Shown: positions 5,783 to 24,829 of the stretch, in pieces
Layout of the letters: every line of letters begins with the position of its first letter
Position numbering within the stretch: the stretch's first letter is position 1
Origin: a virus
Lineage: Duplodnaviria > Heunggongvirae > Uroviricota > Caudoviricetes
Virus record (IMG/VR): IMGVR_UViG_2861048470_000001
Direction: 5' to 3' (one strand)
Length of the DNA: 32,620 bases
Notes under the pieces: generated by a model
The model's input: only the letters and a program-made list of their open reading frames with translations
What the model was told of the DNA's origin: nothing
Databases searched by the model: none
Position numbers and translations under genes: made by a program

Positions 5783-5900
5783 ACTGAAATGAACAGCGTT
5801 GCAAGTGTGATAAAAATCATTATACTGTTTTTATATACAGTACTTTAATCTGGAAAGATGCTATAAATGTATATTTCTATAAAAATATATGGTTTATTGA

Positions 5901-5929
5901 TTGTGTATGCTCACTATCAAATTTATACT
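5901..5929 (+). promoter_or_regulatory. Candidate sigma70 promoter for the accessory module (TTGTGT-17 bp-TATACT)
   Basis: Read by eye in the AT-rich spacer upstream of the 6060 gene. Weak -35, good -10. Not validated. Confidence 0.3.
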
Positions 5930-6059
5930 CCGCGCGCAATGTTGAGTATGCTTAAGATATAGCGTTTACAATTCCAGGCTTGAAGGCTCGGGTATAGGTA
6001 AAAATTGAGTGTTCTCGGTTGCTTTTCGTGACATAAGAGGACAGCAAAGGAGGTTGAGT

Positions 6060-6530
6060 ATGTACAGCCCATTGAACATCGCGAATAAGTTTATAGAACT
6101 TGCTTGCGCGGCTGGTATGCCAATCACCCAGATGCAGGCACAAAAGCTGACCTATATAGCACATGGTATAAATCTGGGTTACAAAGGGACGCCTTTGTTA
6201 ACGACACCAGTTTGTGCATGGCGTTATGGTCCAGTGGTTCCAGTTCTGTATAACTATCTTAAAGTTTATGGCCGTAGTCCCATAACACAACCAATACAAG
6301 TTCCATCGGCAATTTCTCAGGAGTTTGACCCTATGACTGAGCAGTTGCTGCAGAACGTTTATAACGTTTACGGTAAATATACCGCTGAGGATTTATCTGC
6401 TTTCACACATCGTGAAGGTACTCCTTGGAAGCAAGCAATGGATAGTCGTATGGATATCATTCCTGATTCCGTTATTCAGGATTACTATCAAAAGCTGCTA
6501 CACGGCGATAGCAATTGCATCGGACTATGA
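6060..6530 (+). CDS. Panacea-domain (DUF4065, SocA/GepA-like) protein; candidate antitoxin
   Basis: About 156 aa from the ATG at 6060, preceded by AAGGAGG. Sequence KLTYIAHGINLGYKGTPLLTTPVCAWRYGPVVPVLYNYL fits the Panacea pattern as I recall it (K.L.Y.A....G.PL....AW..GPV...Y). AT-rich. Confidence 0.65.
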   Translation: MYSPLNIANKFIELACAAGMPITQMQAQKLTYIAHGINLGYKGTPLLTTPVCAWRYGPVVPVLYNYLKVYGRSPITQPIQVPSAISQEFDPMTEQLLQNVYNVYGKYTAEDLSAFTHREGTPWKQAMDSRMDIIPDSVIQDYYQKLLHGDSNCIGL

Positions 6531-6545
6531 GTCCGAATTAAGATA

Positions 6546-6570
6546 ACCCCGTCTATGTACGGGGTTTTTT
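6546..6570 (+). terminator. Rho-independent terminator-like hairpin plus T6
   Basis: ACCCCGT-ctatgt-ACGGGGT followed by TTTTTT; the next ORF's ATG follows immediately at 6571. Confidence 0.6.
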
Positions 6571-7143
6571 ATGCCTGACGATAATAAGAAAGTGACAGCT
6601 GAATTTGATAAAGACCTTCTCAGACGATTGCAGCAAGCTGAGCAGAATCTGATAACTGCCTCTGCGGCTTTGGGAGATGAGGGCTGTTGGGATGAAGAAT
6701 CTCATGAGCCTGAGTCTGTTGAGGACGCTGTTGATGAAATGCAAAAGGAAGAAGAGGATGCTGCGACCATGCAGCGTTTGGATTTATCCAGTCTTAATTT
6801 TCAAATTGCTGAATTGAGTCGCTGTGTTGAAACTATAAGCACTAACCTTGAAAGCGTACAGGCAGAAACCAAAAGAAAAAATGCGGAAACCGACGGCCTG
6901 CTTACGGACAATGAGCTCCGTAGAACTATGGCTGATAAAACATATCAATTCATGATTGTTTGGTGTTGTTTTGTCGGCTGGGTCATATTTATGTATGTAT
7001 TGAAAAAAGATTTTGATCCACCAGAAACAATTATCATTGCGCTTATGGGAACCACAACTGTGAGTATTGTGGGATTGGTTGGGTTTGTTGTTAGTGGTTT
7101 GTTCAAAAGCAACAATAAACCTTCTGGCGACAATAAAAATTAA
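6571..7143 (+). CDS. Acidic coiled-coil protein with two C-terminal transmembrane helices; candidate membrane toxin/effector partner of the Panacea protein
   Basis: 190-aa ORF; N-terminal half charged and helical (LLRRLQQAEQNL..., EEDAATMQRL...); C-terminal hydrophobic stretches YQFMIVWCCFVGWVIFMYVL and IIIALMGTTTVSIVGLVGFVVSGLF. Start uncertain: an internal in-frame ATG (MQRLDL...) has a GAGGA upstream. Confidence 0.6.
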   Translation: MPDDNKKVTAEFDKDLLRRLQQAEQNLITASAALGDEGCWDEESHEPESVEDAVDEMQKEEEDAATMQRLDLSSLNFQIAELSRCVETISTNLESVQAETKRKNAETDGLLTDNELRRTMADKTYQFMIVWCCFVGWVIFMYVLKKDFDPPETIIIALMGTTTVSIVGLVGFVVSGLFKSNNKPSGDNKN

Positions 7144-7152
7144 TCATCAAAG

Positions 7153-7178
7153 TGGCACCTTTGGGTGCTATTTTTTTG
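7153..7178 (+). terminator. Rho-independent terminator closing the accessory module
   Basis: GCACC-tttg-GGTGC hairpin followed by a T7 run, just after the 7143 stop. Confidence 0.55.
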
Positions 7179-7330
7179 CTTTTTCCGCGATTTCTCTGTT
7201 TTTTCCGTGCATCATTTGGTGCATGAGTTTGAATGTGCTTTAGTCTAGCTCACTTGCTTTCTGCTGCCAATGCTAGCTAGGTTTGACGGTGTTCATGCAA
7301 CTGCATTAAAACCGACCCATGAAGCGGGCG

Positions 7331-7349
7331 GGCGAGGCGGGGAAAGCAC
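7331..7349. other. cos: cos site (19-nt cohesive-end sequence GGCGAGGCGGGGAAAGCAC)
   Basis: Exact 19-mer that I recall as the P2 cohesive end, located between the accessory locus and Q as in P2. Confidence 0.6.
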
Positions 7350-7490
7350 TGCGCGCTGGCGGTGGTGCTGATTTTATTTTTTCAGCGTCTGAGCGCGTCG
7401 TGATGGCGTTTAGATTGTGCGCCGGGGCGTTGGTGTGTCTGCGGGCTGTTTTGTGCGGTGGTGAGCGTGTGAGGGCGTGATGACGGGGGG

Positions 7491-7513
7491 TAAAAAAGCC
7501 GCCCGCAGGCGGC
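7491..7513 (-). terminator. Rho-independent terminator downstream of Q (minus strand)
   Basis: GCCGCC-cgca-GGCGGC hairpin; on the minus strand it is followed by a T-run (plus-strand AAAAAA at 7492-7497). Confidence 0.55.
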
Positions 7514-7518
7514 GATGT

Positions 7519-8553
7519 TCAGCCGTTGTCAGTGTCCAGTGAGTAGTTTTTAAAGCGGATGACCTCCTGACCGAGCCAGCCGTTTATCTCGCGGATCCTG
7601 TCCTGTAACGGGATAAGCTCATTGCGGACAAAGACCTTTGCCACTTTCTCAATATCACCCAGCGACCCGACGTTCTCCGGCTTGCCGCCCATCAACTGAA
7701 AAGGGATGCGGTGCGCGTCCAGCAGGTCTGCGGCGCTGGCTTTTTTGATATTAAAAAAATCGTCCTTCGTTGCCACTTCACTGAGCGGGATAATTTTAAT
7801 GCCGTCGGCTTTCCCTTGCGGGGCATAGAGAAACAGATTTTTAAAGTTGTTGCGGCCTTTCGACTTCACCATGTTTTCGCGGAGCATTTCGATATCGTTG
7901 CGATCCTGCACGGCATCAGTGACGTACATGATGTATCCGGCATGTGCGCCGTTTTCGTAATACTTGCGGCGGAACAGCGTGGCTGACTCATTCAGCCAGG
8001 CAGAGTTAAGGGCGCTGAGATATTCCGGCAGGCCGTACAGCTCCTGATTAATATCCGGCTCCAGCAGATGAAACACGGAGCCGGGCGTGAAAGGTGTCGG
8101 CTCGTTGAAGGACGGCACCCACCAGTAAACATCCTCCTCCACGCCACGGCGGGTATATTTTGCCGGTGAGGTTTCCAGTCTGATGACCTTACCGGTGGTA
8201 CTGTAACGCTTTTCCAGAAACGCATTACCGAACACCAGAAAATCCAGCACAAAGCGGCTGAAATCCTGCTGGGAAAGCCACGGATGCGGGATAAATGTCG
8301 AGGCCAGAATATTACGTTTGACGTAAATCGGTGAGCTGTGATGCACGGCAGCACGCAGGCTTTTTGCCAGACCGGTAAAGCTGATCGGTGGCTCATACCA
8401 TCTGCCGTTACTGATGCACTCGACGTAATCCAGAATGTCACGGCGGTCGAGTACCGGCACCGGCTCACCAAAGGTGAATGCTTCCATTTTCGGGGCGCTG
8501 GCGGTCATTGTTTTTGCCGCAGGTTGCGGTGTTTTCCCTTTTTTCTTGCTCAT
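7519..8553 (-). CDS. Q: Portal protein Q
   Basis: 344-aa ORF, same length and position as P2 gpQ; start overlaps the P stop. Confidence 0.9.
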   Translation of the reverse strand: MSKKKGKTPQPAAKTMTASAPKMEAFTFGEPVPVLDRRDILDYVECISNGRWYEPPISFTGLAKSLRAAVHHSSPIYVKRNILASTFIPHPWLSQQDFSRFVLDFLVFGNAFLEKRYSTTGKVIRLETSPAKYTRRGVEEDVYWWVPSFNEPTPFTPGSVFHLLEPDINQELYGLPEYLSALNSAWLNESATLFRRKYYENGAHAGYIMYVTDAVQDRNDIEMLRENMVKSKGRNNFKNLFLYAPQGKADGIKIIPLSEVATKDDFFNIKKASAADLLDAHRIPFQLMGGKPENVGSLGDIEKVAKVFVRNELIPLQDRIREINGWLGQEVIRFKNYSLDTDNG

Positions 8554-10325
8554 CAGTAAAACTCCAGAATGGTGGATGTCAGCGGGGTGCTGATACCGGC
8601 GGTGAGTGGCTCATTTAACAGGGCGTGCATGGTCGCCCAGGCGAGGTCGGCGTGGCTGGCTTCCTCGCTGCGGTTGGCCTCATAGGTGGCGCTGCGTCCG
8701 CTGCTGGTCATGGTCTTGCGGATAGCCATAAACGAGCTGGTGATGTCGGTGGCGCTGACGTCGTATTCCAGACAGCCACGGCGGATAACGTCTTTTGCCT
8801 TGAGCACCATTGCGGTTTTCATTTCCGGCGTGTAGCGGATATCACGCGCGGCGGGATAGAACGAGCGCACGAGCTGGAACACGCCGACACCGAGGCCGGT
8901 GGCATCAATTCCGATGTATTCGACGTTGTATTTTTCGGTGAGTTTGCGGATGGATTCAGCCTGGGTGGCAAAGTCCATGCCTTTCCACTGGTGACGCTCA
9001 AGTATTCTGAATTTGCCACCGGCCACCACCGGCGGTGCCAGCACCACGCATCCGGCACTGTCGCCACGGTGTGACGGGTCGTAACCAATCCATACCGGGC
9101 GGGAGCCGAACGGATTGGCGGCAAACGGCGCATAGTCTTCCCATTCTTCCAGCGTGTCGACCATGCAGCGTTGCAGCTCCTCGAACGGGAACACCGACGC
9201 CTTGTCGTCAACAAATTCACACATGAACAGGTTTTTAAAATCGTCGGCGCTGTTTTCACGTTTGAGCTGCTCAATGTCGAACAGCGTGCAGCCACCTTTC
9301 AGGGCGTCCTCAATGGTGACAATCTGCCGCCACTGGCCGTCCGCACAGAGAAGCCCCCCGGCAAGGGCGTTATGACTGACGTCGATTTCCACACGTTCGG
9401 CGGCGCTGGCACGTCCCCGGTTGAACAGTTCACCTGACCAGAACGGGTAGGCGTCGTGCGCCAGCGTGGACGGGGTGGAGAAATAGGTCGAGCGCAGGTG
9501 ACTCTGTGAGGCCATACCTGATGCCACCTTACGCAGTACCTGAAAATTCGGGATCCAGAAAATCTCATCGACGTACAGGTCGCCGTTATGGCTCTGCGCG
9601 GTGTTGGAGTTGGTGCCGAGAAAAATCAGTTTTGCGCCGTTATTGCCCAGGACAATCGGGTCACCGGTAAGGTCAACGTCCACCAGACGGGCAAAGGCGA
9701 TGATGTATTCGCGGAACACATACGCCTGCGTTTTACTGGCCGACAGAAAAATCTGGTTATGACCGGTTTTCAGGGCGCGCAGCAGTGCCTCGCGGGAAAA
9801 ATAAAACGTCGCGCCAATCTGGCGGGATTTCAGGATATCGCGGATGCGGTGCTCAAGCCCGGCGCGATACCAGTGCAACTGATAGTCGAAAGACTGCTCA
9901 AAGAAAATCTGCTCCAGCTTTTCGATGGCTTCGTCACTGAAAAAATTCTTTTTCGGTTTGCGACGCCCGCCTTTGTTGCGGTTAGCGACGTTCGGATTAA
10001 GGTCTGCCTCGTTGCCGGTCTGGCTGTAGCGATTTACCCGTGCCAGTCGTTCAATCTGGCGTCCCAGCAGGTCAATTTCCTTGAAGTCACCGCCGGTTTT
10101 CTGCGGTTTGATGATGAGCTGGGTCAGCCGCGCTTCCAGGCTCATTTCGACACGGCTGATGGGGGCAACGCTGTCCCAGCCGTCGCGCTGTTTCCAGCTC
10201 TGCACCGTCGGGCGTTTCATCTGCAACATGGCGGCAATCTGCGGCACGGAAAACCCCTGCCAGTACAGCAGCGCCGCCTGACGACGCGGGTCGTGTAAAA
10301 GAGTGGTGTCTGTGGTGATGGTCAT
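8553..10325 (-). CDS. P: Terminase large (ATPase) subunit P
   Basis: About 590 aa from the internal Met (MTITTD...); transcribed divergently from O, as in P2. Confidence 0.9.
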   Translation of the reverse strand: MTITTDTTLLHDPRRQAALLYWQGFSVPQIAAMLQMKRPTVQSWKQRDGWDSVAPISRVEMSLEARLTQLIIKPQKTGGDFKEIDLLGRQIERLARVNRYSQTGNEADLNPNVANRNKGGRRKPKKNFFSDEAIEKLEQIFFEQSFDYQLHWYRAGLEHRIRDILKSRQIGATFYFSREALLRALKTGHNQIFLSASKTQAYVFREYIIAFARLVDVDLTGDPIVLGNNGAKLIFLGTNSNTAQSHNGDLYVDEIFWIPNFQVLRKVASGMASQSHLRSTYFSTPSTLAHDAYPFWSGELFNRGRASAAERVEIDVSHNALAGGLLCADGQWRQIVTIEDALKGGCTLFDIEQLKRENSADDFKNLFMCEFVDDKASVFPFEELQRCMVDTLEEWEDYAPFAANPFGSRPVWIGYDPSHRGDSAGCVVLAPPVVAGGKFRILERHQWKGMDFATQAESIRKLTEKYNVEYIGIDATGLGVGVFQLVRSFYPAARDIRYTPEMKTAMVLKAKDVIRRGCLEYDVSATDITSSFMAIRKTMTSSGRSATYEANRSEEASHADLAWATMHALLNEPLTAGISTPLTSTILEFY

Positions 10326-10498
10326 GAATACCTCGCCGTGATGAATACACGGCAAGGCTACTGAGTCGCGCCCCGCGATTCGCTAAGGTGCTGTTGTGTC
10401 AGTGATAAGCCATCCGGGACTGATGGCGGAGGATGCGCATCGTCGGGAAACTGATGCCGACATGTGACTCCTCTACTCACTATTCAGGACTCCTGACA

Positions 10499-11353
10499 AT
10501 GGCTAAAAAAGTCTCAAAATTCTTTCGTATCGGCGTTGAGGGTGACACCTGTGACGGGCGTGTCATCAGTGCGCAGGATATTCAGGAAATGGCCGAAACC
10601 TTTGACCCGCGAGTCTATGGTTGCCGTATTAACCTGGAACATCTGCGCGGCATCCTGCCTGACGGCATTTTTAAACGTTATGGCGATGTGGCCGAACTGA
10701 AGGCCGAAAAGATTGACGATGATTCGGCGCTGAAAGGCAAATGGGCGCTGTTTGCGAAAATCACCCCGACCGATGACCTTATCGCGATGAACAAGGCCGC
10801 GCAGAAGGTCTATACCTCAATGGAAATTCAGCCGAACTTTGCCAACACCGGCAAATGTTATCTGGTGGGGCTGGCCGTCACCGATGACCCGGCAAGCCTC
10901 GGCACGGAATACCTGGAATTCTGCCGCACGGCAAAACACAACCCCCTGAACCGCTTCAAATTAAGCCCTGAAAACCTGATTTCAGTGGCAACGCCTGTTG
11001 AGCTGGAATTTGAAGACCTGCCTGAAACCGTGTTCACCGCCCTGACCGAAAAGGTGAAATCCATTTTTGGCCGCAAACAGGCCAGCGATGACGCCCGTCT
11101 GAATGACGTGCATGAAGCGGTGACCGCTGTTGCTGAACATGTGCAGGAAAAGCTGAGCGCCACTGAGCAGCGACTCGCTGAGATGGAAACCGCCTTTTCC
11201 GCACTTAAGCAGGATGTGACTGACAGGGCGGATGAAACCAGTCAGGCATTCACCCGCCTGAAAAACAGTCTCGACCACACCGAAAGTCTGACCCAGCAGC
11301 GCCGCAGCAAGGCCACCGGTGGTGGCGGTGACGCCCTGATGACGAACTGCTGA
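10499..11353 (+). CDS. O: Capsid scaffolding protein O
   Basis: Starts MAKKVSKFFRIGVEGDTCDGRV... as I recall for P2 gpO; about 284 aa. Confidence 0.9.
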   Translation: MAKKVSKFFRIGVEGDTCDGRVISAQDIQEMAETFDPRVYGCRINLEHLRGILPDGIFKRYGDVAELKAEKIDDDSALKGKWALFAKITPTDDLIAMNKAAQKVYTSMEIQPNFANTGKCYLVGLAVTDDPASLGTEYLEFCRTAKHNPLNRFKLSPENLISVATPVELEFEDLPETVFTALTEKVKSIFGRKQASDDARLNDVHEAVTAVAEHVQEKLSATEQRLAEMETAFSALKQDVTDRADETSQAFTRLKNSLDHTESLTQQRRSKATGGGGDALMTNC

Positions 11354-11411
11354 CCGGCGTCAGTCAGTCCGGGAAAACCTTCACGATTAACCCTTAATTT
11401 CAGGAAAAACT

Positions 11412-12485
11412 ATGCGCCAGGAAACCCGCTTTAAATTTAATGCCTACCTGTCCCGTGTTGCCGAGCTGAACGGCATCGACGCCGGTGATGTGTCGAAAAA
11501 ATTCACCGTTGAACCGTCGGTCACCCAGACCCTGATGAACACCATGCAGGAGTCCTCTGACTTTCTGACCCGCATCAATATTGTGCCGGTCAGCGAAATG
11601 AAAGGGGAAAAAATTGGCATCGGTGTCACCGGCTCCATCGCCAGCACCACCGACACCGCCGGTGGCACCGAGCGTCAGCCGAAGGACTTCTCGAAGCTGG
11701 CGTCAAACAAGTACGAATGCGACCAGATTAACTTCGATTTTTATATCCGCTACAAAACGCTGGACCTGTGGGCGCGTTATCAGGATTTCCAGCTCCGTAT
11801 CCGTAACGCCATTATCAAACGCCAGTCCCTTGATTTCATCATGGCCGGTTTTAACGGCGTGAAGCGTGCCGAAACCTCTGACCGCAGCAGCAATCCGATG
11901 CTGCAGGATGTGGCGGTCGGCTGGCTGCAGAAATACCGCAATGAAGCCCCGGCGCGCGTGATGAGCAAGGTCACTGACGAGGAAGGCCGCACCACCTCTG
12001 AGGTCATCCGCGTGGGTAAGGGCGGTGATTATGTAAGCCTCGATGCACTGGTGATGGATGCGACCAACAACCTGATTGAACCTTGGTATCAGGAAGATCC
12101 TGACCTTGTGGTGATTGTGGGGCGTCAGCTACTGGCGGACAAGTATTTCCCCATCGTCAACAAAGAGCAGGACAACAGCGAAATGCTGGCCGCTGACGTC
12201 ATCATCAGTCAGAAACGCATCGGTAACCTGCCGGCGGTACGCGTCCCGTACTTCCCGGCGGATGCGATGCTCATCACGAAGCTGGAAAACCTGTCCATCT
12301 ACTACATGGATGACAGCCATCGCCGCGTGATTGTGGAAAACCCGAAACTCGACCGCGTGGAGAACTACGAGTCAATGAACATTGATTACGTGGTGGAAGA
12401 CTACGCCGCCGGTTGTCTGGTGGAAAAAATTAAGGTCGGTGATTTCTCCACACCGGCTAAAGCGACCGCAGAGCCGGGAGCGTAA
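11412..12485 (+). CDS. N: Major capsid protein N
   Basis: 357-aa ORF following O; P2 gpN size and position. Confidence 0.9.
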   Translation: MRQETRFKFNAYLSRVAELNGIDAGDVSKKFTVEPSVTQTLMNTMQESSDFLTRINIVPVSEMKGEKIGIGVTGSIASTTDTAGGTERQPKDFSKLASNKYECDQINFDFYIRYKTLDLWARYQDFQLRIRNAIIKRQSLDFIMAGFNGVKRAETSDRSSNPMLQDVAVGWLQKYRNEAPARVMSKVTDEEGRTTSEVIRVGKGGDYVSLDALVMDATNNLIEPWYQEDPDLVVIVGRQLLADKYFPIVNKEQDNSEMLAADVIISQKRIGNLPAVRVPYFPADAMLITKLENLSIYYMDDSHRRVIVENPKLDRVENYESMNIDYVVEDYAAGCLVEKIKVGDFSTPAKATAEPGA

Positions 12486-12488
12486 CCG

Positions 12489-13232
12489 ATGACGAGTCCC
12501 GCACAGCGCCACATGATGCGGGTCTCGGCAGCGATGACCGCGCAGCGGGAAGCCGCCCCGCTGCGACATGCAACTGTCTATGAGCAGATGCTGGTCAAGC
12601 TGGCCGCAGACCAGCGCACACTGAAAGCGATTTATTCAAAAGAGCTGAAGGCCGCAAAAAAACGCGAACTGCTGCCGTTCTGGTTGCCGTGGGTGAACGG
12701 CGTGCTGGAGCAGGGCAAAGGTGCACAGGATGACATTCTGATGACGGTCATGCTGTGGCGTCTGGATACCGGCGATATTGCCGGTGCGCTGGAGATTGCC
12801 CGTTATGCCCTGAAGTACGGGCTGACCATGCCGGGTAAACACCGCCGCACCCCGCCGTACATGTTCACCGAGGAGGTGGCGCTTGCGGCCATGCGCGCTC
12901 ACGCTGCCGGTGAATCCGTGGATATCCGACTGCTGATGGACACCCTTGAACTGACCGCTGCTGCTGACATGCCTGATGAAGTGCGCGCAAAGCTGCACAA
13001 AATCACCGGTCTGTTTCTGCGTGACGGTGGTGATGCCGCCGGTGCGCTGGCGCACCTGCAACGTGCGACACAGCTCGACTGTCAGGCAGGCGTCAAAAAA
13101 GAGATTGAACGACTGGAGCGGGAACTGAAACCGAAGCCGGAGCCGCAGCCAAAAGCGGCCACCCGCGCCCCGCGTAAGAGCCGGAGTGCGACACCGGCAA
13201 AACGTGGACGCCCGAAAAAGAAAGCCAGTTAA
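12489..13232 (+). CDS. M: Terminase small/endonuclease subunit M
   Basis: 247-aa ORF with a basic Lys/Arg/Pro-rich C-terminal tail; P2 gpM position. Confidence 0.85.
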   Translation: MTSPAQRHMMRVSAAMTAQREAAPLRHATVYEQMLVKLAADQRTLKAIYSKELKAAKKRELLPFWLPWVNGVLEQGKGAQDDILMTVMLWRLDTGDIAGALEIARYALKYGLTMPGKHRRTPPYMFTEEVALAAMRAHAAGESVDIRLLMDTLELTAAADMPDEVRAKLHKITGLFLRDGGDAAGALAHLQRATQLDCQAGVKKEIERLERELKPKPEPQPKAATRAPRKSRSATPAKRGRPKKKAS

Positions 13233-13331
13233 CAACCGAATGCGCCCCGCGCCAGGGCGGCACGCCGGTCAGTGAGGGTGAATCACCTGACACTGCACCG
13301 GCGTCCACCGCCCGACTTTTCAGAGGTAGTC

Positions 13332-13841
13332 ATGATGACGCTGATTATTCCGCGAAAGGAGGCTCCCGTGTCCGGTGAGGGTACGGTGGTCATCCCGCAA
13401 CCGGCAGGCGACGAGCCGGTGATTAAAAACACGTTCTTTTTTCCCGATATCGACCCGAAGCGCGTCCGGGAACGTATGCGCCTTGAGCAGACCGTCGCCC
13501 CCGCCCGTCTGCGTGAGGCCATCAAGTCAGGCATGGCGGAGACAAATGCGGAGCTGTACGAGTACCGCGAACAGAAAATTGCCGCCGGTTTTACGCGTCT
13601 GGCGGACGTCCCGGCGGACGACATCGACGGTGAAAGCATCAAAGTTTTTTACTACGAGCGCGCCGTGTGTGCGATGGCGACCGCGTCGCTTTATGAGCGT
13701 TACCGCGGCGTGGATGCCAGTGCGAAAGGTGACAAGAAGGCTGACAGCATTGACAGCACCATTGATGAACTGTGGCGGGATATGCGCTGGGCGGTGGCGC
13801 GTATCCAGGACAAGCCGCGCTGCATCGTGAGTCAAATCTGA
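13332..13841 (+). CDS. L: Capsid completion protein L
   Basis: About 169 aa from the ATG at 13332 (MMTLIIP...); P2 gpL position. Confidence 0.85.
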   Translation: MMTLIIPRKEAPVSGEGTVVIPQPAGDEPVIKNTFFFPDIDPKRVRERMRLEQTVAPARLREAIKSGMAETNAELYEYREQKIAAGFTRLADVPADDIDGESIKVFYYERAVCAMATASLYERYRGVDASAKGDKKADSIDSTIDELWRDMRWAVARIQDKPRCIVSQI

Positions 13842-14044
13842 TGAAGACCTTTGCGCTACAGGGCGACACGCTCGACGCCATTTGTGTCCGGTATTACGGG
13901 CGCACTGAGGGCGTGGTTGAGACCGTGCTCGCCGCAAATCCGGGACTGGCTGAACTGGGTGTGGTGCTGCCACACGGCACCGCCGTCGAACTGCCCGACG
14001 TTCAGACCGCGCCCGTGGCTGAAACTGTCAATCTGTGGGAGTAA
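13841..14044 (+). CDS. X: Tail protein X (LysM-like)
   Basis: 67 aa (MKTFALQGDTLDAICVRYYG...); ATG overlaps the L stop. Confidence 0.85.
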   Translation: MKTFALQGDTLDAICVRYYGRTEGVVETVLAANPGLAELGVVLPHGTAVELPDVQTAPVAETVNLWE

Positions 14045-14047
14045 CGC

Positions 14048-14826: not shown

Positions 14827-14840
14827 ACGGAGTAAACACC

Positions 14841-16254: not shown

Positions 16255-16699
16255 GTTTAAGCGTTTTGAAGACCGGCTGACCGGACTGATTGAATCGTTG
16301 TCACCGTCAGGGCGTCGGCGACTGAGCGCCGAACTGGCGAAACGTCTGCGGCAGAGTCAGCAGCGCCGGGTGATGGCACAGAAAGCCCCGGACGGCACAC
16401 CCTACGCACCACGCCAGCAGCAGAGCGCCAGAAAAAAGACCGGTCGCGTTAAGCGAAAAATGTTTGCGAAACTTATCACCAGTCGTTTTTTGCATATCCG
16501 CGCCAGCCCTGAACAGGCATCAATGGAGTTTTACGGCGGGAAGTCACCGAAAATAGCCAGTGTGCATCAGTTCGGTCTGTCGGAAGAAACCCGGAAAGAC
16601 GGTAAGAAAATTGATTATCCGGCGCGTCCTCTGCTCGGCTTTACCTGTGAGGATGTGCAGATGATTGAAGAGATTATCCTGGCTCACCTTGAGCGTTAG
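16247..16699 (+). CDS. S: Tail completion protein S
   Basis: 150 aa; P2 gpS size and position. Confidence 0.85.
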   Translation: MNEFKRFEDRLTGLIESLSPSGRRRLSAELAKRLRQSQQRRVMAQKAPDGTPYAPRQQQSARKKTGRVKRKMFAKLITSRFLHIRASPEQASMEFYGGKSPKIASVHQFGLSEETRKDGKKIDYPARPLLGFTCEDVQMIEEIILAHLER

Positions 16700-16729
16700 T
16701 TTTATCCAGGCAGAGGCTGATGCGCAATT

Positions 16730-16764
16730 AAACATTGAGCGGCCATGCTGGGCGCTCAATGTTT
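16730..16764. terminator. Bidirectional terminator hairpin between convergent S and the 16771-17556 gene
   Basis: Perfect 12-bp inverted repeat AAACATTGAGCG (16730-16741) / CGCTCAATGTTT (16753-16764) with an 11-nt loop. Confidence 0.6.
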
Positions 16765-16770
16765 AGAGGT

Positions 16771-17556
16771 TTATGAGTGATTTTTATTTGATGCTTTGTA
16801 TTCTAAAACCTTCTTATTGGCGTAAAAGAATTTTGTATATGACAGGAATATAACCAGACCTGAAGTGAAATAGACGAGGGATAGTATTAATAATGCTTTT
16901 TTGTGACTGTTATTATCTTTAATCTCCTGGCTTAACCATTCGGAGTCCTCCTCGTTTAGCTGTAAGAGCTTATTGCAGGCGATTTCAGGAAGTGTGTCTT
17001 TTATAAATACGTTTTGCAGTCTCTTGCAATCGGCAAGGCTATAAGTTTTATTAAATTCAACTGCTTTATTTTTGAAGGATAAAAGAACTTTGTCACTATA
17101 AACATAGTACATCATATTTTTATATGGTATGCCTATGGCATCTCTTACTATAGCGGATTGTTTGTTGTGTATATAACATGCGAAGAGAATATAAATAATA
17201 CTGGCCAGAATTACAATTGTTGTTTTAATTATGTGTGGTGGTTTTGTTATGTCACCCCAGATGCGAGTAAGGAAAAAATACGATGTTTTTAGTTTTCCAT
17301 CAATCAGTCCCTGCTGTATCATTCTCACATTTTCAATGCCTGATACATTGATTCCGTTAATTATTTTAAATAGTTGAATGTCGCGCCACTCGCGGTCAAG
17401 TCTTTTTAATTTTTTGTCTGAATATCCAAAATTGAAATAATGTGCAATAAGCCTCATAAGGTTACTTTTACCAAAGCTAAAAAATGCTAATACTGCAAAG
17501 CTACAAAGGAAAAAAACGATTAGCCCCCACACATTAGTCACATTATAGCTGACCAT
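16771..17556 (-). CDS. Accessory membrane protein with three predicted transmembrane helices, unknown function (P2 orf30 position)
   Basis: 261-aa ORF on the strand opposite to the flanking tail genes; strongly AT-rich; hydrophobic segments near residues 9-28, 120-140 and 225-245; no motif I recognise. Confidence 0.65.
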   Translation of the reverse strand: MVSYNVTNVWGLIVFFLCSFAVLAFFSFGKSNLMRLIAHYFNFGYSDKKLKRLDREWRDIQLFKIINGINVSGIENVRMIQQGLIDGKLKTSYFFLTRIWGDITKPPHIIKTTIVILASIIYILFACYIHNKQSAIVRDAIGIPYKNMMYYVYSDKVLLSFKNKAVEFNKTYSLADCKRLQNVFIKDTLPEIACNKLLQLNEEDSEWLSQEIKDNNSHKKALLILSLVYFTSGLVIFLSYTKFFYANKKVLEYKASNKNHS

Positions 17557-17639
17557 TACGCTCTCCTTGAATGTTGTCTGGTAGTTCTACAAATGAATCC
17601 AGATAGCATAACTTTTATATATTGTGCAATCTCACACGC

Positions 17640-18275
17640 ATGAACACTCTCGCAAATATTCAGGAACTCGCGCGCGCACTGCGCAACATGATTCGCACCG
17701 GCATTATCGTCGAAACCGACCTTAACGCCGGTCGCTGCCGCGTGCAGACCGGCGGCATGTGCACCGACTGGCTTCAGTGGCTGACCCATCGCGCAGGACG
17801 TTCGCGCACATGGTGGGCACCTTCCGTGGGGGAACAGGTGCTGATTCTGGCCGTGGGTGGTGAACTCGACACGGCGTTCGTTCTGCCGGGGATTTATTCC
17901 GGCGATAACCCCTCGCCGTCTGTGTCGGCGGATGCCCTGCATATCCGTTTCCCTGACGGGGCGGTGATTGAATATGAACCCGAAACCAGTGCACTCACGG
18001 TAAGCGGAATTAAAACGGCCAGCGTGACGGCTTCTGATTCTGTTACTGCCACGGTGCCGGTGGTCATGGTGAAAGCATCAACCCGCGTCACCCTGGACAC
18101 CCCGGAGGTGGTCTGCACCAACAGGCTGATTACCGGCACGCTGGAAGTGCAGAAGGGCGGGACGATGCGCGGCAACATTGAACACACCGGCGGTGAACTC
18201 TCATCAAACGGTAAGGTACTGCATACCCATAAACACCCCGGCGACAGCGGCGGCACAACCGGGAGTCCTCTATGA
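17640..18275 (+). CDS. V: Baseplate spike/assembly protein V
   Basis: Starts MNTLANIQELARAL... as I recall for P2 gpV. Confidence 0.9.
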   Translation: MNTLANIQELARALRNMIRTGIIVETDLNAGRCRVQTGGMCTDWLQWLTHRAGRSRTWWAPSVGEQVLILAVGGELDTAFVLPGIYSGDNPSPSVSADALHIRFPDGAVIEYEPETSALTVSGIKTASVTASDSVTATVPVVMVKASTRVTLDTPEVVCTNRLITGTLEVQKGGTMRGNIEHTGGELSSNGKVLHTHKHPGDSGGTTGSPL

Positions 18276-18619
18276 CAGCGCGTTATCTCGGAATGAATCG
18301 CAGTGATGGCCTGACGGTCACTGACCTCGAGCATATCAGCCAGAGTATCGGCGATATCCTGCGCACACCAGTCGGCTCACGGGTGATGCGTCGTGATTAC
18401 GGCTCGTTGCTGGCGTCAATGATTGACCAGCCGCAGACCCCGGCGCTTGAGTTGCAGATTAAGGTCGCCTGTTACATGGCGGTGCTGAAATGGGAACCCC
18501 GCGTCACCCTGTCATCCGTCACCACTGAGCGCAGTTTTGACGGGCGAATGACGGTCACGTTAACCGGCCAGCACAACGACACCGGCCAGCCACTTTCGTT
18601 AACCATCCCTGTGAGTTGA
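18272..18619 (+). CDS. W: Baseplate protein W
   Basis: 115 aa; overlaps the V stop; P2 gpW position. Confidence 0.85.
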   Translation: MTARYLGMNRSDGLTVTDLEHISQSIGDILRTPVGSRVMRRDYGSLLASMIDQPQTPALELQIKVACYMAVLKWEPRVTLSSVTTERSFDGRMTVTLTGQHNDTGQPLSLTIPVS

Positions 18620-18623
18620 AACC

Positions 18624-19532
18624 ATGCCGATTATCGACCTGAACCAGCTACCCGCACCGGATGTGGTCGAGGAGCTGGACTTTGAAAGCATTCTCGCTGA
18701 ACGCAAGGCGACACTGATTTCCCTTTACCCGGAAGATCAGCAGGAGGCGGTCGCCCGTACCCTGACGCTGGAATCCGAGCCTCTCGTCAAACTGCTGGAG
18801 GAAAATGCGTATCGCGAGCTTATCTGGCGTCAGCGTGTGAATGAGGCTGCACGGGCGGTGATGCTGGCCTGGGCAGCCGGTAATGACCTTGATGTGATTG
18901 GTGCCAATTACAACACCACGCGCCTGACTATCACCCCGGCAGATGATTCGACTATCCCGCCGACACCGGCAGTGATGGAGTCTGACACCGATTATCGTCT
19001 GCGTATTCAGCAGGCGTTTGAAGGCTTAAGCGTCGCCGGGTCGGTGGGAGCCTATCAGTATCATGGTCGCAGTGCCGACGGGCGTGTCGCGGATATCTCT
19101 GTCACCAGTCCGTCTCCGGCCTGTGTCACCATCTCTGTGCTGTCACGTGAAAATAACGGTGTGGCATCTGAAGACCTGCTGGCTGTGGTGCGCAACGCCC
19201 TGAATGGCGAGGACGTCAGACCGGTGGCCGACCGTGTGACCGTGCAGTCTGCCGCCATCGTTGAATACCAGATAAATGCCACGCTTTACCTTTACCCTGG
19301 CCCCGAAAGCGAACCCATTCGCGCTGCCGCCGTGAAAAAACTGGAAGCGTACATCACGGCACAGCACCGGCTGGGGCGCGACATCCGTCTGTCTGCCATT
19401 TATGCCGCCTTGCATGTGGAAGGCGTGCAGCGTGTCGAACTGGCTGCACCACTGGCCGACATCGTGCTCAACAGTACGCAGGCGTCTTTCTGCACCGAAT
19501 ACCGCGTCGTGACCGGAGGCTCGGATGAGTGA
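18624..19532 (+). CDS. J: Baseplate protein J
   Basis: 302 aa; P2 gpJ position. Confidence 0.9.
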   Translation: MPIIDLNQLPAPDVVEELDFESILAERKATLISLYPEDQQEAVARTLTLESEPLVKLLEENAYRELIWRQRVNEAARAVMLAWAAGNDLDVIGANYNTTRLTITPADDSTIPPTPAVMESDTDYRLRIQQAFEGLSVAGSVGAYQYHGRSADGRVADISVTSPSPACVTISVLSRENNGVASEDLLAVVRNALNGEDVRPVADRVTVQSAAIVEYQINATLYLYPGPESEPIRAAAVKKLEAYITAQHRLGRDIRLSAIYAALHVEGVQRVELAAPLADIVLNSTQASFCTEYRVVTGGSDE

Positions 19533-20055
19533 TTCGCGCCTGCTGCCGACCGGCTCATCACCGCTTGAAGTCGCTGCCGCGAAAGCCTGTGCGGAAATTG
19601 AAAAAACGCCGGTCAGTATTCGTGAGCTGTGGAACCCGGACACCTGCCCGCCAAATCTGCTGCCGTGGCTGGCGTGGGCGTTTTCGGTCGACAGGTGGGA
19701 TGAAAAGTGGCCGGAAGCGACAAAACGCGCCGTTATCCGCGATGCCTATTTCATCCACTGTCATAAGGGCACGATAGGTGCAATCCGACGTGTGGTGGAG
19801 CCGCTCGGCTATCTCATCAACGTGACGGAGTGGTGGGAAAACAGTGACCCGCCCGGCACCTTCCGGCTCGATATTGGTGTACTGGAAAGCGGTATCACAG
19901 AGGCAATGTATCAGGAAATGGAACGGCTGATTGCTGATGCCAAACCTGCAAGCCGTCACCTTATTGGTCTGAACATTACCCGGGACATTCCCGGCTATCT
20001 GTTCGCCGGTGGTGTGGCTTACGACGGCGATGTAATTACGGTTTACCCCGGATAA
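19525..20055 (+). CDS. I: Tail/baseplate protein I
   Basis: 176 aa; P2 gpI position. Confidence 0.85.
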   Translation: MSDSRLLPTGSSPLEVAAAKACAEIEKTPVSIRELWNPDTCPPNLLPWLAWAFSVDRWDEKWPEATKRAVIRDAYFIHCHKGTIGAIRRVVEPLGYLINVTEWWENSDPPGTFRLDIGVLESGITEAMYQEMERLIADAKPASRHLIGLNITRDIPGYLFAGGVAYDGDVITVYPG

Positions 20056-20065
20056 GTGAGGAATA

Positions 20066-22315
20066 ATGAGCACAAAATTCAAAACCGTTATCACTACTGC
20101 CGGTGCAGCAAAGCTGGCAGCGGCAACCGCGCCGGGAGGGCGGAAGGTCAACATTACCACGATGGCCGTCGGGGATGGCGGTGGTAAATTGCCTGTCCCG
20201 GATGCCGGACAGACCGGGCTTATCCACGAAGTCTGGCGACATGCGCTGAACAAAATCAGTCAGGACAAACGAAACAGTAATTATATTATCGCAGAGCTGG
20301 TTATTCCGCCGGAGGTGGGCGGTTTCTGGATGCGTGAGCTTGGCCTGTACGATGATGCTGGAACGTTAATTGCCGTGGCGAACATGGCCGAAAGTTATAA
20401 GCCAGCCCTTGCCGAAGGCTCAGGGCGTTCGCAGACCTGCCGCATGGTCATCATCGTCAGCAGTGTGGCCTCAGTGGAGCTGACCATTGACACCACAACG
20501 GTGATGGCAACGCAGGATTACGTTGATGACAAAATTGCAGAACATGAACAGTCACGACGTCACCCTGACGCCTCGCTGACCGCAAAAGGTTTTACTCAGT
20601 TAAGCAGTGCGACCAACAGCACGTCTGAAACACTGGCTGCAACGCCAAAGGCGGTTAAGGCCGCATATGACCTTGCTAACGGGAAATATACCGCACAGGA
20701 CGCTACCACCGCGCGAAAAGGCCTTGTTCAGCTCAGTAGTGCGACTAACAGCACGTCTGAAACGCTCGCCGCAACGCCGAAAGCGGTAAAGGCAGCATAT
20801 GACCTTGCTAACGGGAAATACACTGCACAGGATGCCACAACAGCGCGAAAAGGCCTTGTTCAGCTCAGTAGCGCCACCAACAGCGATTCTGAAACGCTTG
20901 CGGCAACGCCAAAGGCGGTTAAGACAGCATATGACCTTGCTAACGGGAAATACACTGCACAGGATGCCACCACGGCGCGAAAAGGTCTTGTCCAGCTCAG
21001 TAGCGCCACCAACAGTGATTCTGAAACGCAGGCTGCAACGCCAAAGGCGGTGAAGTCTGCCTATGACAATGCTGAAAAACGTCTTCAGAAAGATCAGAAC
21101 GGTGCGGATATCCCTGATAAAGAACGCTTCCTGAGTAACATTAATGTTTACAGCAAAGGTGAAGTGGATAAGAAAAAGGGAATGCGAAAGTATTCGTTTG
21201 CAGCCCCTGCAAATGTCGTTGCCGGGAAGTGGTACCCCGTTATCTTTCGCCGTGCTGCCAGCCTTTCAGGAGAAATGGCATCCCGCGTTGTTATTTCCAC
21301 TGGTTGTTATAACGGCGATTATGTAATGAATAACTGCGAGTTTAATGGCATGGTTATGCCCGGAGGCTGGACTGATCGTGGTTCATATGCGGCAGGTTAT
21401 TTCTGGACGTATCAGACTAATGAGCGTTCAATCCATTCCATTGTTACAAGCCTGAAAGATGATGATGTATGTAGTGTTTTTTATGTTGAAGCCAGAGCTT
21501 TCCCTGTACAAATTCTTGCAGAGGAAGGGCTAACGGTTATTGTTCCGACAGAGGATTATGTCGTCGGTCAAACGACATATAAGTGGGGGGCAACTAATCC
21601 CGCTACAGAAAGCACGAACGCACAGGCTATTCTGGATTTTAAAAATGGACGTGGTTATTACTGTTCACATCCATTTATTTCCAGCCTTTCAGGAAATGCT
21701 GCAACAGCAACGAAGTTAGCGAACGCAAGAAATATTAATGGTGTCAGATTTGATGGCTCTGCCGATATAAATATTAATACACTGGTATCCAGAAACCGTG
21801 TTAATGCATTAGGTGGGAGCGTAAAGGGGACACCAGGTATTCAGATGTATGAGGCATACAACAATGGCTACCCAACAGCCTATGGTAATGTGCTTCATCT
21901 CACTGGCGTAACCGCAGTAGGAGAGGGTGAGTTACTTATTGGCTGGAGTGGAACCAGCGGTGCTCATGCTCCGGCATATATTCGTTCCCGACGAGATACC
22001 ACAGATGCTAACTGGTCTGGATGGGCGCAACTATATACAACTGCTCATAAACCCTCAGCGGGAGATGTTGGTGCATACACCAAAACTGAGTCAGATTCAC
22101 GTTATGTGAGAGACATGCGGCTGGGCGGTGCATCTACATATAAACCAGCAAATAATGGTACTACATGGACGCATCAGGCTCCGTCAGGTTGCGTATATAC
22201 CGGCATTATTGTTCAGGATACCGGCTCAAACTCTGCCGATAACATTGGTGGCGTATATTACAGACCGGTGCAGAAATACATTAACGGGACATGGTATAAC
22301 GTGGCGCAGGTATAA
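20066..22315 (+). CDS. H: Tail fibre protein H
   Basis: 749 aa; conserved N-terminus; internal tandem phage-fibre repeats; divergent, AT-richer C-terminal region. Confidence 0.9.
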   Translation: MSTKFKTVITTAGAAKLAAATAPGGRKVNITTMAVGDGGGKLPVPDAGQTGLIHEVWRHALNKISQDKRNSNYIIAELVIPPEVGGFWMRELGLYDDAGTLIAVANMAESYKPALAEGSGRSQTCRMVIIVSSVASVELTIDTTTVMATQDYVDDKIAEHEQSRRHPDASLTAKGFTQLSSATNSTSETLAATPKAVKAAYDLANGKYTAQDATTARKGLVQLSSATNSTSETLAATPKAVKAAYDLANGKYTAQDATTARKGLVQLSSATNSDSETLAATPKAVKTAYDLANGKYTAQDATTARKGLVQLSSATNSDSETQAATPKAVKSAYDNAEKRLQKDQNGADIPDKERFLSNINVYSKGEVDKKKGMRKYSFAAPANVVAGKWYPVIFRRAASLSGEMASRVVISTGCYNGDYVMNNCEFNGMVMPGGWTDRGSYAAGYFWTYQTNERSIHSIVTSLKDDDVCSVFYVEARAFPVQILAEEGLTVIVPTEDYVVGQTTYKWGATNPATESTNAQAILDFKNGRGYYCSHPFISSLSGNAATATKLANARNINGVRFDGSADININTLVSRNRVNALGGSVKGTPGIQMYEAYNNGYPTAYGNVLHLTGVTAVGEGELLIGWSGTSGAHAPAYIRSRRDTTDANWSGWAQLYTTAHKPSAGDVGAYTKTESDSRYVRDMRLGGASTYKPANNGTTWTHQAPSGCVYTGIIVQDTGSNSADNIGGVYYRPVQKYINGTWYNVAQV
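20585..21076 (+). repeat. Four tandem copies of a 132-bp (44-aa) repeat inside H
   Basis: Units start at 20585, 20717, 20849 and 20981, each encoding KG(L/F)(V/T)QLSSATNS(T/D)SETLAATPKAVKAAYDLANGKYTAQDATTAR; the fourth is truncated and divergent. Copies differ at synonymous sites. Confidence 0.85.
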
Positions 22316-22318
22316 TTT

Positions 22319-22846
22319 ATGCAGCATTTAAAAAATATTACGGCGGGTAATCCAAAAACGGTTGAACAATATCAATTGACAAAGGACTTTGATGTTGTCT
22401 GGTTTTTTTCAGAAGATGGTAAGAACTGGTACGAAGAACAAAAGTATTTTGCTGATGACACGATAAAAATAGCGTACGACAAAGATAATATCATCCACTA
22501 TGTGGAAAAGGATGTGACAGCTATCAGACCGGATGGATTAAGTGTTGTTGAAGTGGCGGATATTACTGCTAACCGACGGGCGGACATTTCAGGGAACTGG
22601 ATGTTTAAGGACGGCAAAGTGATTAAACGCATTTATACGGCAGAGGAATTACAGCAGCAGGCAGAAATTCGGAAAGCCAGACTTCTTGCAGATGCTGAAT
22701 CCGTGATTTTGCCGCTGGAGCGCGCGGTCAGACTGAACATGGCAACAGATGAGGAGCGTAGCCGACTGGAATCATGGGAACGCTACAGCGTTCTGATCAG
22801 TCGTGTGGATCCTGCAAATCCTGAATGGCCGGAAATGCCGCAATAA
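22319..22846 (+). CDS. G: Tail fibre assembly chaperone G
   Basis: 175 aa (MQHLKNI...[11 protein letters not shown]); conserved Tfa C-terminus. Confidence 0.85.
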
Positions 22847-22907
22847 GTTGTATGAACTCTTGTGTGAGCTTACATACCTATAGAACAGAGTAAAGCCTAA
22901 TCTGACA

Positions 22908-22931
22908 GTCCGCTCTGTGCCAGGAGCGGAC
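22908..22931. repeat. Hairpin at the left edge of the Z/fun-locus cargo
   Basis: GTCCGCTC (22908-22915) / GAGCGGAC (22924-22931) with an 8-nt loop and no T-run; overlaps the motifs AATCTGACAGTC and AGTCCGCTCT that recur on the far side of the cargo gene. Confidence 0.5.
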
Positions 22932-23185
22932 ATAACGACACGTTAGTTAGAAATCTCAAGACCAATTAGGTTGGATACTTACATGTATACTATTGCCTAA
23001 CGATACTACCCTATCAACCTCATGGTTTATAGGCGGGGGTGAGAGCCAATCGAACGCTATCGTACGTTTTTATGCTGTCTACCCTAGACCCCAAGTAGAC
23101 ATGAATCTTACCTGATTTCCATACGAGGGCGACGTTGATCATCCAGCTTTAGTGCGAGCACTGAACTTAACATTTACCAGCAATA

Positions 23186-24232
23186 GTGATATTTTCTACA
23201 AAGAAAAATATATGGAATAACGTCATCGCGGGTACAAAAATGACTATAAAAAAAACATATGTAACACCAACAGAAATAGTGAAATATTTTTATGACAAAC
23301 CGGAAAACGATAACGTAAAAGAGAGAAAAACAATTGAGAGCCTGACCCGTCTCAAACCTGAGTGGGAAAATACTCTCGATATGATGAAGTTAATACGCAA
23401 TTGTGAAAAGCTAGCAACTGAAGGTATTTTAATGGAATTATCTTCAGGACATACTCTTTTGGACCGTTGCTATTTCGCACCGAATTTCAATGAATCAGAT
23501 GCGAAATATGGAAAGTATGATTTTATAGCTGATGGATTTGAGTCAATCATAGACCGCCTTAGTCCTTCCGTTTTACCTGTTGTTGTTGAAAAAAGTGATG
23601 GTTCACATGATCTTGGTACTAGTTTTATTGTTGGGAATAACCACACGATATTTACAGCCAGACATGTTATTGAAGACATGAAGAGTATCAGGATACTTAG
23701 AGCTGGTGGTGAGGCTTTACCAATACATAAAATCTTTGTATCTAACGATGAACGTATTGATATCGCTTTAGTTTTCACAACCATTCCGAATGAAGATAAT
23801 ATTCAACCACTTAAGGTCTCAACCAAAGCCTCGGTACTGGATGAAATTTTATCAATAGGATTTCCACCCATTCCAGGATTTGATGCATTAAAGTTATATG
23901 ACGTTTCGCATATAAATTCGTTTGTCCGACTGTCAAAGGGGCGAATTGTTGGTTCTGGTCACTCTTACTTAGATTCACAAGACTTTTTATTATTCAATGC
24001 TAGGGTTAAGGGGGGGAATAGCGGTGGCCCTATAATTAACAAATACGGCTTTGTTGTTGGTATGCTTGTACAAATACCAATATCATCTGAGGACAGTTCA
24101 AAGATTGATAACCTTGGATATGGTATAGCTGTAACAGGAAAAAGCCTGCTGGATGCCATTACATTTACAGAAAATGGCCGCGAATTAACACTCACCGACC
24201 GAGGAAATGGAGAATATTCAACTCTAGCATAA
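23186..24232 (+). CDS. Trypsin-fold (S1-like) serine protease with an N-terminal domain of unknown function; accessory gene at the Z/fun locus
   Basis: ORF with a His-Asp-Ser triad in chymotrypsin order and spacing: TARHV (His), DIALV (Asp), GGNSGGP (Ser). AT-rich. Start is either GTG at 23186 or ATG at 23240. Confidence 0.7.
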   Translation: MIFSTKKNIWNNVIAGTKMTIKKTYVTPTEIVKYFYDKPENDNVKERKTIESLTRLKPEWENTLDMMKLIRNCEKLATEGILMELSSGHTLLDRCYFAPNFNESDAKYGKYDFIADGFESIIDRLSPSVLPVVVEKSDGSHDLGTSFIVGNNHTIFTARHVIEDMKSIRILRAGGEALPIHKIFVSNDERIDIALVFTTIPNEDNIQPLKVSTKASVLDEILSIGFPPIPGFDALKLYDVSHINSFVRLSKGRIVGSGHSYLDSQDFLLFNARVKGGNSGGPIINKYGFVVGMLVQIPISSEDSSKIDNLGYGIAVTGKSLLDAITFTENGRELTLTDRGNGEYSTLA

Positions 24233-24829
24233 ATGATATTATTAATTAAGTTGTACTAACTCAGTTTAAATGAATCAAGCATCCCCGTAACTTTGCCTGA
24301 AAAGGCTCATCGAGGGATGCACATTGTACGGATGTGTGAAAACTAAATCGGCTTTGTCACTTGGATTCGAGGGGAAAACTGAACTGAAAGCGATAAAAAC
24401 GTCTAAAAAATCGTTTCGCAGACAGATGCACCCGATTCAAGCCATTTTGAGGAAGGCTTTCTGCCTTTTATATTTATATTAATCATAAGCTTATTCCATT
24501 GGTGTACGATATCGTGCTTTGCCCCTCATCTCCCAGATAACTAATTAGCCTTAAAATTACTCATGTGTTTCTGCCGGTTAAAATTATATGGTTTTCATTT
24601 ACAATAGTCTCAAGTCCGCTCTTCGCTCAAAGCAGACTGTCAGATTTGATAGCATTTGGGCTATGTAAATTGTCAGGCGGAAAATGAGTGAGTACAAATC
24701 AGGACAGGCGGGCGAATTGCCCGCATTTTCTTTATCTGTTGTTTCATCCCCTGACCAGCCAGGTCAAATAGCGTCTCATGCACTGCCCAACAGAAAATAG
24801 TTGCACCCATTAACCACGGAGTTAAACGG

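Follow-up and report, generated by a model that had tools for sequence, protein, structure and literature searches.

Three AT-rich islands in a P2-like prophage of Escherichia coli probably mark the classical accessory positions of P2

The stretch of DNA analysed here (IMG/VR virus record IMGVR_UViG_2861048470_000001, 32,620 nucleotides (nt); hereafter the window) is a P2-like (Peduovirus) prophage of Escherichia coli. Its three AT-rich islands are very probably the classical accessory ("moron") positions of P2, filled with horizontally acquired cargo: the TO region (gpA to cos/gpQ), the orf30 region (gpS to gpV) and the Z/fun region (gpG to gpFI). The anchor genes have the coordinates that these accessory regions call for. 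Slot 1 is framed on the left by the replication endonuclease gene gpA (3473-5782, + strand; GC content 0.533) and on the right by cos (7331-7349, + strand), a 19-nt cohesive-end sequence that matches P2 bases 1-19 exactly, and by the portal gene gpQ (7519-8553, - strand). Slot 2 lies between gpS (16247-16699, + strand) and gpV (17622-18275, + strand), and slot 3 between gpG and the tail sheath gene gpFI (24830-26020, + strand). All three positions fall between early or late operons, where a self-contained module interrupts no essential transcription unit.

The backbone around these slots is that of P2. In a megablast search of phage records, P2, Wphi and many Peduovirus genomes match at 96-97% identity over 75-83% of the query, and the open reading frames (ORFs) follow the order of the P2 prophage from int (1-1011, - strand) to ogr (31151-31432), that is, int-C-cox-B-A / cos / Q-P-O-N-M-L-X-Y-K-lys-R-S-V-W-J-I-H-G-FI-FII-E-T-U-D-ogr. 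Against the P2 reference (NC_001895, rotated at attP), blastn returns backbone blocks at 1771-5776, 7302-20791 and 24615-31521 with 97.5%, 97.3% and 94.1% nucleotide identity, respectively, gpA being part of the first. Homology to P2 is absent between 5776 and 7302, which defines island 1 (5777-7301), and between 22931 and 24615, which defines island 3 (22932-24613). Island 2, the orf30 cassette (16702-17639), is precisely the segment missing from a prophage of strain CUVM3, where the gap between S and V is 66 nt. The three island segments, used as queries, are 100% identical to a prophage of E. coli strain 120899, and a 99.8%-identical copy of the prophage adjoins cpxP in strain 204446.

Base composition sets the islands apart. 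GC content is 0.404 in 5783-7150, 0.350 in 16700-17600 and 0.391 in 22850-24830; the remainder of the A-to-D part of the phage has 0.552. Relative to every equal-length window of backbone genes, these values correspond to z = -8.9, -10.2 and -11.2 for islands 1, 2 and 3, and the lowest such windows reach only 0.515, 0.508 and 0.526. Third-codon-position GC is 0.40 and 0.37 in the putative panA and panT genes of island 1, 0.34 in orf30 and 0.29 in the peptidase gene of island 3, compared with 0.58-0.76 in the late genes. A two-state hidden Markov model (HMM) was used to call low-GC segments. Its segment at 5773-7311 (GC 0.404) falls 4-10 nt from the P2 homology breakpoints of island 1 (5777/7301), and that at 16758-17660 (GC 0.337) falls 21-56 nt from the breakpoints of the insertion or deletion (16702/17639) seen against the prophage with an empty slot. 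The third segment, 21062-24699, begins within the tail-fibre gene H and covers G, both of which have core functions; since it starts inside H and includes G, nothing in the composition marks the left edge of island 3 at 22850.

The initial annotation had held, by eye, that three AT-rich islands coincide exactly with three loci whose genes lack a P2-core counterpart, and had proposed GC and codon-usage plots as a check. The three dips are real and far beyond chance, and composition shifts at all three loci, with the exception just noted at the left edge of island 3. The exactness does not survive, as the HMM yields five low-GC blocks rather than three. Islands 1 and 3 do lack P2 homology; the protein with three predicted membrane segments in island 2, however, is none other than P2 Orf30, to which it is identical at 255 of its 261 residues (98% amino-acid identity).

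What occupies the slots in related phages was tabulated from IMG/VR loci fetched around relatives of two anchors, gpQ and gpFI (80 loci for each). Slots were anchored by tblastn with the flanking proteins, and the intervening DNA was clustered at 80% reciprocal coverage; eight contigs fetched twice, the window and P2 itself are excluded from the counts. The A-Q slot is never empty in 63 loci and holds 47 sequence types, with cargo of 1.1-5.9 kilobases (kb) and GC 0.34-0.455. The G-FI slot holds 38 sequence types in 57 loci, seven of them empty (12%), with cargo of 0.36-4.4 kb and GC 0.32-0.50. The S-V slot is empty in 69 of 104 loci (66%; 23-77 nt, GC 0.51-0.70) and otherwise carries 0.8-2.5 kb at GC 0.335-0.42, giving 16 sequence types in all; orf30 accounts for 20 loci (19%) and nine other cargo types for 15. 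Family matches among the A-Q cargoes include PD-Lambda-5, type II methyltransferases, a restriction enzyme, LmuB, SIR2, kinases, cytolethal distending toxin, DprA and ABC-3C components, and those among the G-FI cargoes include PARIS AriA, DUF4435, a retron reverse transcriptase with an ATPase-Toprim protein, PD-T7-1, PD-T7-5, TIR, Mrr and a resolvase-type invertase. Whatever it encodes, the cargo in all three slots is AT-rich.

The three cargoes assort independently, and the positions are polymorphic even among close relatives. The frequencies of the three cassettes across 5,426 complete E. coli genomes span orders of magnitude: 10 genomes have that of island 1 (99.5% identity or more in each), 463 that of orf30 (80-100% identity) and 40 that of island 3 (99% identity or more in each). 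P2-type G/FI flanks are matched in 2,272. The prophage of strain CUVM3 has the same Panacea-domain gene pair in A-Q and the same cpxP-side attachment site, but its S-V slot is empty and its G-FI slot carries an invertase with alternative tail-fibre genes. That of strain ETEC1706 has a different attachment site and integrase; orf30 and the peptidase gene are present, together with an ATP-dependent nuclease gene in A-Q. Cargo can also be closer between strains than the genes beside it: island 1 is 99.5% identical to its counterpart in CUVM3, where the neighbouring A and Q are 96.7% and 97.7% identical, and island 3 is 99.7% identical to its counterpart in ETEC1706, where G and FI are 78% and 97.2% identical. 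These slot contents, genome frequencies and identity contrasts, along with the copies of the peptidase cassette outside P2-like prophages described below, support the initial annotation's suggestion of independent horizontal acquisition into a conserved backbone with all three loci serving as cargo slots. The situation it named as contrary to this, the same genes in all P2-like phages, is not what the E. coli genomes contain.

Two other accounts of the AT-richness have to be set against this pattern. It is distinctly unlikely that composition here reflects function and not origin, whether through silencing by H-NS or through the needs of promoters or of membrane-protein codons. Such an account would fit the somewhat raised numbers of promoter-like sites in island 2 (8 against 3.7 expected) and island 3 (11 against 6.1 expected), and the fact that two of the four cargo proteins are membrane proteins. 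The soluble peptidase nevertheless has the lowest third-position GC of all, and both the independent assortment and the near-identity of cargo across diverged backbones are left unexplained; moreover, a functional effect is compatible with horizontal acquisition, and hence is no alternative to it. The second account, that the islands are old residents whose non-essential DNA drifted towards AT in place under relaxed selection, is extremely improbable. It has its best case in orf30, which may be a long-term resident because its alleles in E. coli are graded and because the S-V slot of a more distant P2-like phage holds an Orf30 homologue of 34% identity. Every cargo ORF is intact, however, and the catalytic triad of the peptidase is invariant. 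All copies of the panA-panT and peptidase cassettes agree at 99% or more, against flanks that differ by 2-22%; the peptidase gene is just as AT-rich in an unrelated genome, and unrelated cargoes of the same slots are AT-rich throughout.

If the islands are indeed horizontally acquired cargo, the main route of cassette exchange would be recombination in the conserved flanks during encounters between related prophages. New cargo would arrive by occasional illegitimate joins, such as the one that a TATG microhomology appears to mark in a copy outside P2. The AT-richness would then mirror that of the mobile pool of defence and accessory genes from which the cargo is drawn.

Several observations weigh against this interpretation or narrow it. 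Low GC is not specific to cargo: the early/immunity region (~1-3073, GC 0.445 by the HMM) is also low, as are the C-terminal part of H together with G, and the HMM further reports the segment from ogr to attR (31027-31682, GC 0.436). Because the HMM returns non-cargo segments as well, low GC detects cargo with sensitivity but without specificity; a plain GC scan locates the slots to tens of bases and flags other regions too. The sampled loci are the 80 closest relatives of each query, so that the slot frequencies are biased towards P2-like phages of E. coli. S-V is far less diverse than A-Q and G-FI, 85% of its loci being either empty or occupied by orf30. Finally, PADLOC (version 2.0, run on the four cargo proteins) has no matching model for PanA, PanT or Orf30, and it matches the peptidase only through the protease part of its RT-Protease, LmuA and HamA models.

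A further proposal is that only A-Q and G-FI are true cargo slots, orf30 being a lineage-specific backbone gene that comes and goes through deletion. The high proportion of empty slots, the modest share held by orf30 and its presence in hundreds of genomes with graded divergence are all in keeping with this. Yet the nine other cargo types of the S-V slot are unrelated and include defence-like domains such as AAA+TIR, RelA_SpoT and GmrSD_N, and orf30 is listed as the third variable region in earlier work (PMC3091744, PMC6823313), so that the two-slot proposal is very unlikely. Three slots are retained here, with the qualification that orf30 is P2's own non-essential gene and that the S-V slot shows far less turnover than A-Q and G-FI.

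Within island 2, orf30 (16771-17556, - strand) encodes a membrane protein with hydrophobic segments at residues 9-27, 109-127 and 221-239. It finds no match in Pfam, PADLOC or NCBIfam. A role at the surface or in superinfection exclusion would be a guess. Between the convergent S and orf30 lies a palindrome with 17-nt arms (16729-16765), a bidirectional terminator; the P2 annotation has a terminator at the equivalent place. The S-V alternatives seen in other P2-like loci (L032, L053, L159 and L009) include AAA+TIR, a RelA/SpoT-like gene, GmrSD-N with a second gene, and an AAA_22 ATPase.

Island 3 is bracketed by an imperfect 33-nt inverted repeat, whose left arm (22899-22931, + strand) and right arm (24614-24646, + strand) lie exactly at the P2 homology breakpoints. 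This conserved pair of arms brackets 30 different G-FI cargo types in P2-like loci. The left arm begins 44-59 nt past the G stop codon, and the right arm nearly always ends 182-187 nt before the FI start codon; both are absent from empty G-FI slots. Farther to the right is a GC-rich hairpin with a T-run, a terminator (24708-24724, + strand), which in empty slots stands directly 3' of the G stop codon. No convincing bracket repeats of this kind are found at the other two slots. As invertase crossover sites the arms were considered and set aside, as they are unlike the gix, cix and hix sequences.

The position of the arms raises another explanation for the G-FI cargo, namely that it is a discrete element moved by a site-specific or transposition-like reaction at the arms and not by recombination in the flanks. 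Arms that coincide with homology breakpoints, that keep fixed distances from G and FI around so many cargo types and that vanish from empty slots are what this would predict, and site-specific recombination is said to be proposed for these P2 regions in the title of a 2004 paper by Nilsson et al. Other features of the arms argue the opposite. The cassette has no recombinase or transposase, and a copy outside P2 retains only the inner parts of the arms, its junction being a 4-nt microhomology and no clean site. Within loci, the left arm shows no co-variation with the right (24.97 matches observed against 24.86 in shuffles), and the outer 24 nt of each behave as conserved backbone. Movement as a discrete element is thus unlikely, if less so than the other alternatives above, and recombination in the flanks remains the preferred route. 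The arms themselves may serve as recombination sites or as insulating hairpins, or may be left over from a single ancestral insertion.

The gene between the arms (23240-24232, + strand) encodes a 330-amino-acid (aa) S1 serine peptidase similar to HtrA and DegS (Pfam Trypsin_2, E 1.8e-17). Residues H142, D174 and S261 are invariant in 53 homologues. The AlphaFold model is confident, with a predicted local distance difference test score of 85.5, and the best folds in the PDB are those of DegS, DegQ and DegP (Foldseek probability 1.0). The protein has no PDZ domain match and no hydrophobic segment, and ends ~30 residues past the protease domain. Its N-terminal domain of ~100 aa has no sequence match in searches made with the whole protein. 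Against NCBIfam the peptidase scores 20-46 bits, far under the cut-offs of 250-800. The family, conserved over its full length of ~330 aa, extends to Enterobacteria, Pseudomonas, Nitrospina and Bacteroidota. No conserved partner gene accompanies it in three distant homologues, which stand alone, their neighbours being housekeeping genes or unrelated ones. Conservation at a distant homologous locus is limited to the peptidase gene, ~83 nt upstream and ~37 nt downstream; because only the gene and these short flanks are conserved there, a non-coding function for the cassette is rejected. The gene is equally AT-rich in an unrelated distant genome, where it again lies in an AT-rich island.

The peptidase cassette is not confined to P2-like prophages. 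It lies between G and FI in only 12 of the 40 E. coli genomes that have it; the other 28 carry it outside any P2-like prophage, and match only positions 22912 to 24637 or 24643 of the window, with no P2 flanks. In strain A22 (locus L164, 19973-21698) it follows a BRO-N gene with which an unrelated prophage ends, flanked by fragments of the ssrA and thrW attachment sites and adjoining the vat island. The same site is empty in strain MINF_1D (locus L166), and comparison of the two shows a ~1.74 kb insertion joined at a TATG microhomology, from which it follows that the cassette moves as a unit and has done so at least once by an illegitimate join. Three copies of the cassette bear IS3 or IS4 insertions.

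As to function, the peptidase is likely a cytoplasmic defence effector encoded by a single gene. A single-gene effector role is suggested because the gene is sited in a defence hotspot, the same slot elsewhere carrying genes of the PARIS, retron and PD-T7 families. Two bolder readings, one that it constitutes a new single-gene anti-phage (abortive-infection) system and the other that the 33-nt arms are the sites of cassette exchange, are tentative and on balance doubtful.

Island 1 carries a putative type II toxin-antitoxin pair of the PanAT kind. The antitoxin gene, panA (6060-6530, + strand; RefSeq WP_000287234.1), starts at M18 of the mechanically called ORF 6009-6530. Its product has a Panacea/DUF4065 domain (Pfam SocA_Panacea PF13274, E 1.9e-17, 64.6 bits against a cut-off of 25.7) and shares 45% identity along its whole length with the validated PanA WP_000287252.1 of Shiga toxin-producing E. 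coli (STEC) O31. It lies directly upstream of panT (6571-7143, + strand; phrog_26171), on the same strand and with a gap of 40 nt, the arrangement of a PanAT two-gene operon. PanT has a charged N-terminal half and predicted transmembrane segments at residues 126-144 and 154-172 in its C-terminal part. Its C-terminal 95 residues are 44% identical to those of the validated PanT WP_000019185.1 of STEC O31 (E 1e-27), and only this C-terminal half aligns. The STEC O31 pair is an experimentally demonstrated toxin-antitoxin system, its toxin causing depolarisation and permeabilisation of the membrane (Kurata et al. 2022, PMC8832971), and by resemblance the toxin of island 1 would be of the same membrane-depolarising, pore-forming type. 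A GC-rich hairpin with a T-run between the two genes (6545-6566, + strand; 8 pairs) is terminator-like, and may act as an attenuator that keeps transcription of the toxin below that of the antitoxin; another terminator-like hairpin (7149-7174, + strand) lies 3' of panT. The role of the pair is likely to be abortive infection or prophage stabilisation. It is already listed among A-Q loci as "DUF4065 + hypothetical" (WP_000287234 + WP_001112381) in Table S5A of Rousset et al. 2022 (PMC9122126).

Some features elsewhere in the window can be recorded alongside these. A semi-conserved CATGAnTTTGCATG-like motif occurs at the right edge of nearly every A-Q cargo (47 loci; ~7215-7300 in the window), ~100 nt upstream of the conserved cos-proximal sequence, and may be part of the packaging region. 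The C-terminal part of H together with G (20900-22846, + strand; GC 0.46) forms a mosaic host-range module. The interval 20791-22931 can be regarded as a fourth exchangeable low-GC module, in which P2 homology is lost past 20791 or persists at only 75-84% (75-77% in G). Compared with ETEC1706, the C-terminal part of H is 98% identical and G only 78%. H has 749 aa in the window against 669 aa in P2, and includes a Phage_fiber_2-type repeat of 132 nt (44 aa) in 3.5 tandem copies (20612-21067). At the ends of the window (1-1344 and 31433-32620), which hold the integrase, repressor and attachment region, similarity to P2 is limited to short pieces at 70-79% identity, and a host cation-efflux gene (31650-32570) follows the prophage at the right end. 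A search of the whole window against Rfam at gathering thresholds finds no RNA family.

The existence of three such slots is already known, having been published since at least 2010 and mapped at large scale since 2022. The P2 annotation describes old, tin, fun(Z) and orf30 as non-essential, and orf91-tin-old, orf30 and fun(Z) occupy the three positions. According to a paper of 2010 that cites Nilsson et al. 2004, genes absent from P2 are common at three sites, namely the TO region, the Z region and orf30, and are predicted to be horizontally acquired (PMC3091744); the orf30, TO and Z/fun regions are likewise named as variable regions of P2-like phages (PMC6823313). The A-Q locus is an anti-phage hotspot ("P2 defence hotspot 1"), whose 18,150 occurrences comprise 1,650 gene arrangements (Rousset et al. 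2022, PMC9122126; also Vassallo et al. 2022 for the hotspot), and a second such hotspot of P2 is G-FI (Vassallo et al. 2022, PMC9519451; bioRxiv 10.1101/2024.10.15.618418). According to a 2026 preprint, defence loci swap rapidly between P2 elements with identical core genes (bioRxiv 10.64898/2026.02.27.708500). With the three variable regions already named, and TO and Z/fun recently described as anti-phage defence hotspots, the slots carry little weight as a discovery, and the conserved inverted repeat around the G-FI cargo and the peptidase are only mildly new elements. The leads that emerge are the PanAT pair, the peptidase family in a defence hotspot and the inverted repeat that frames the Z/fun cargo.

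The islands can be compared directly with the known systems that they resemble. Island 1 shares the position of the P2 TO region, beside cos between gpA and gpQ, and the region is likewise hypervariable and AT-rich. In P2, however, it holds orf91-tin-old in 3.25 kb, whereas island 1 is a 1.5 kb PanAT segment without old, tin or orf91. Island 2 has the same gene of 261 aa as the P2 orf30 region, on the same strand and with the same terminator hairpin, and there is no material difference between them. Island 3 lies at the same place between G and FI as the P2 Z/fun region, and in P2 the conserved right arm is found and a sequence like the left arm is visible. The cargo differs, fun(Z) of P2 being a gene of 528 aa on the - strand and that of island 3 a 330-aa S1 peptidase on the + strand.

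At the level of the cargo proteins, the island 1 pair agrees with PanAT of STEC O31 in the order of antitoxin and toxin, the Panacea antitoxin, the charged N-terminal half of the toxin and its C-terminal membrane part of two helices. The N-terminal halves of the two toxins cannot be aligned, and the validated pair is found in another prophage context, near zur. The island 3 peptidase has the protease fold and the His-Asp-Ser triad in common with HtrA, DegP and DegS. It differs from them in having neither the C-terminal PDZ domain nor, by prediction, the envelope export that characterise that group, and a domain of ~100 aa stands at its N-terminus in place of a hydrophobic segment.

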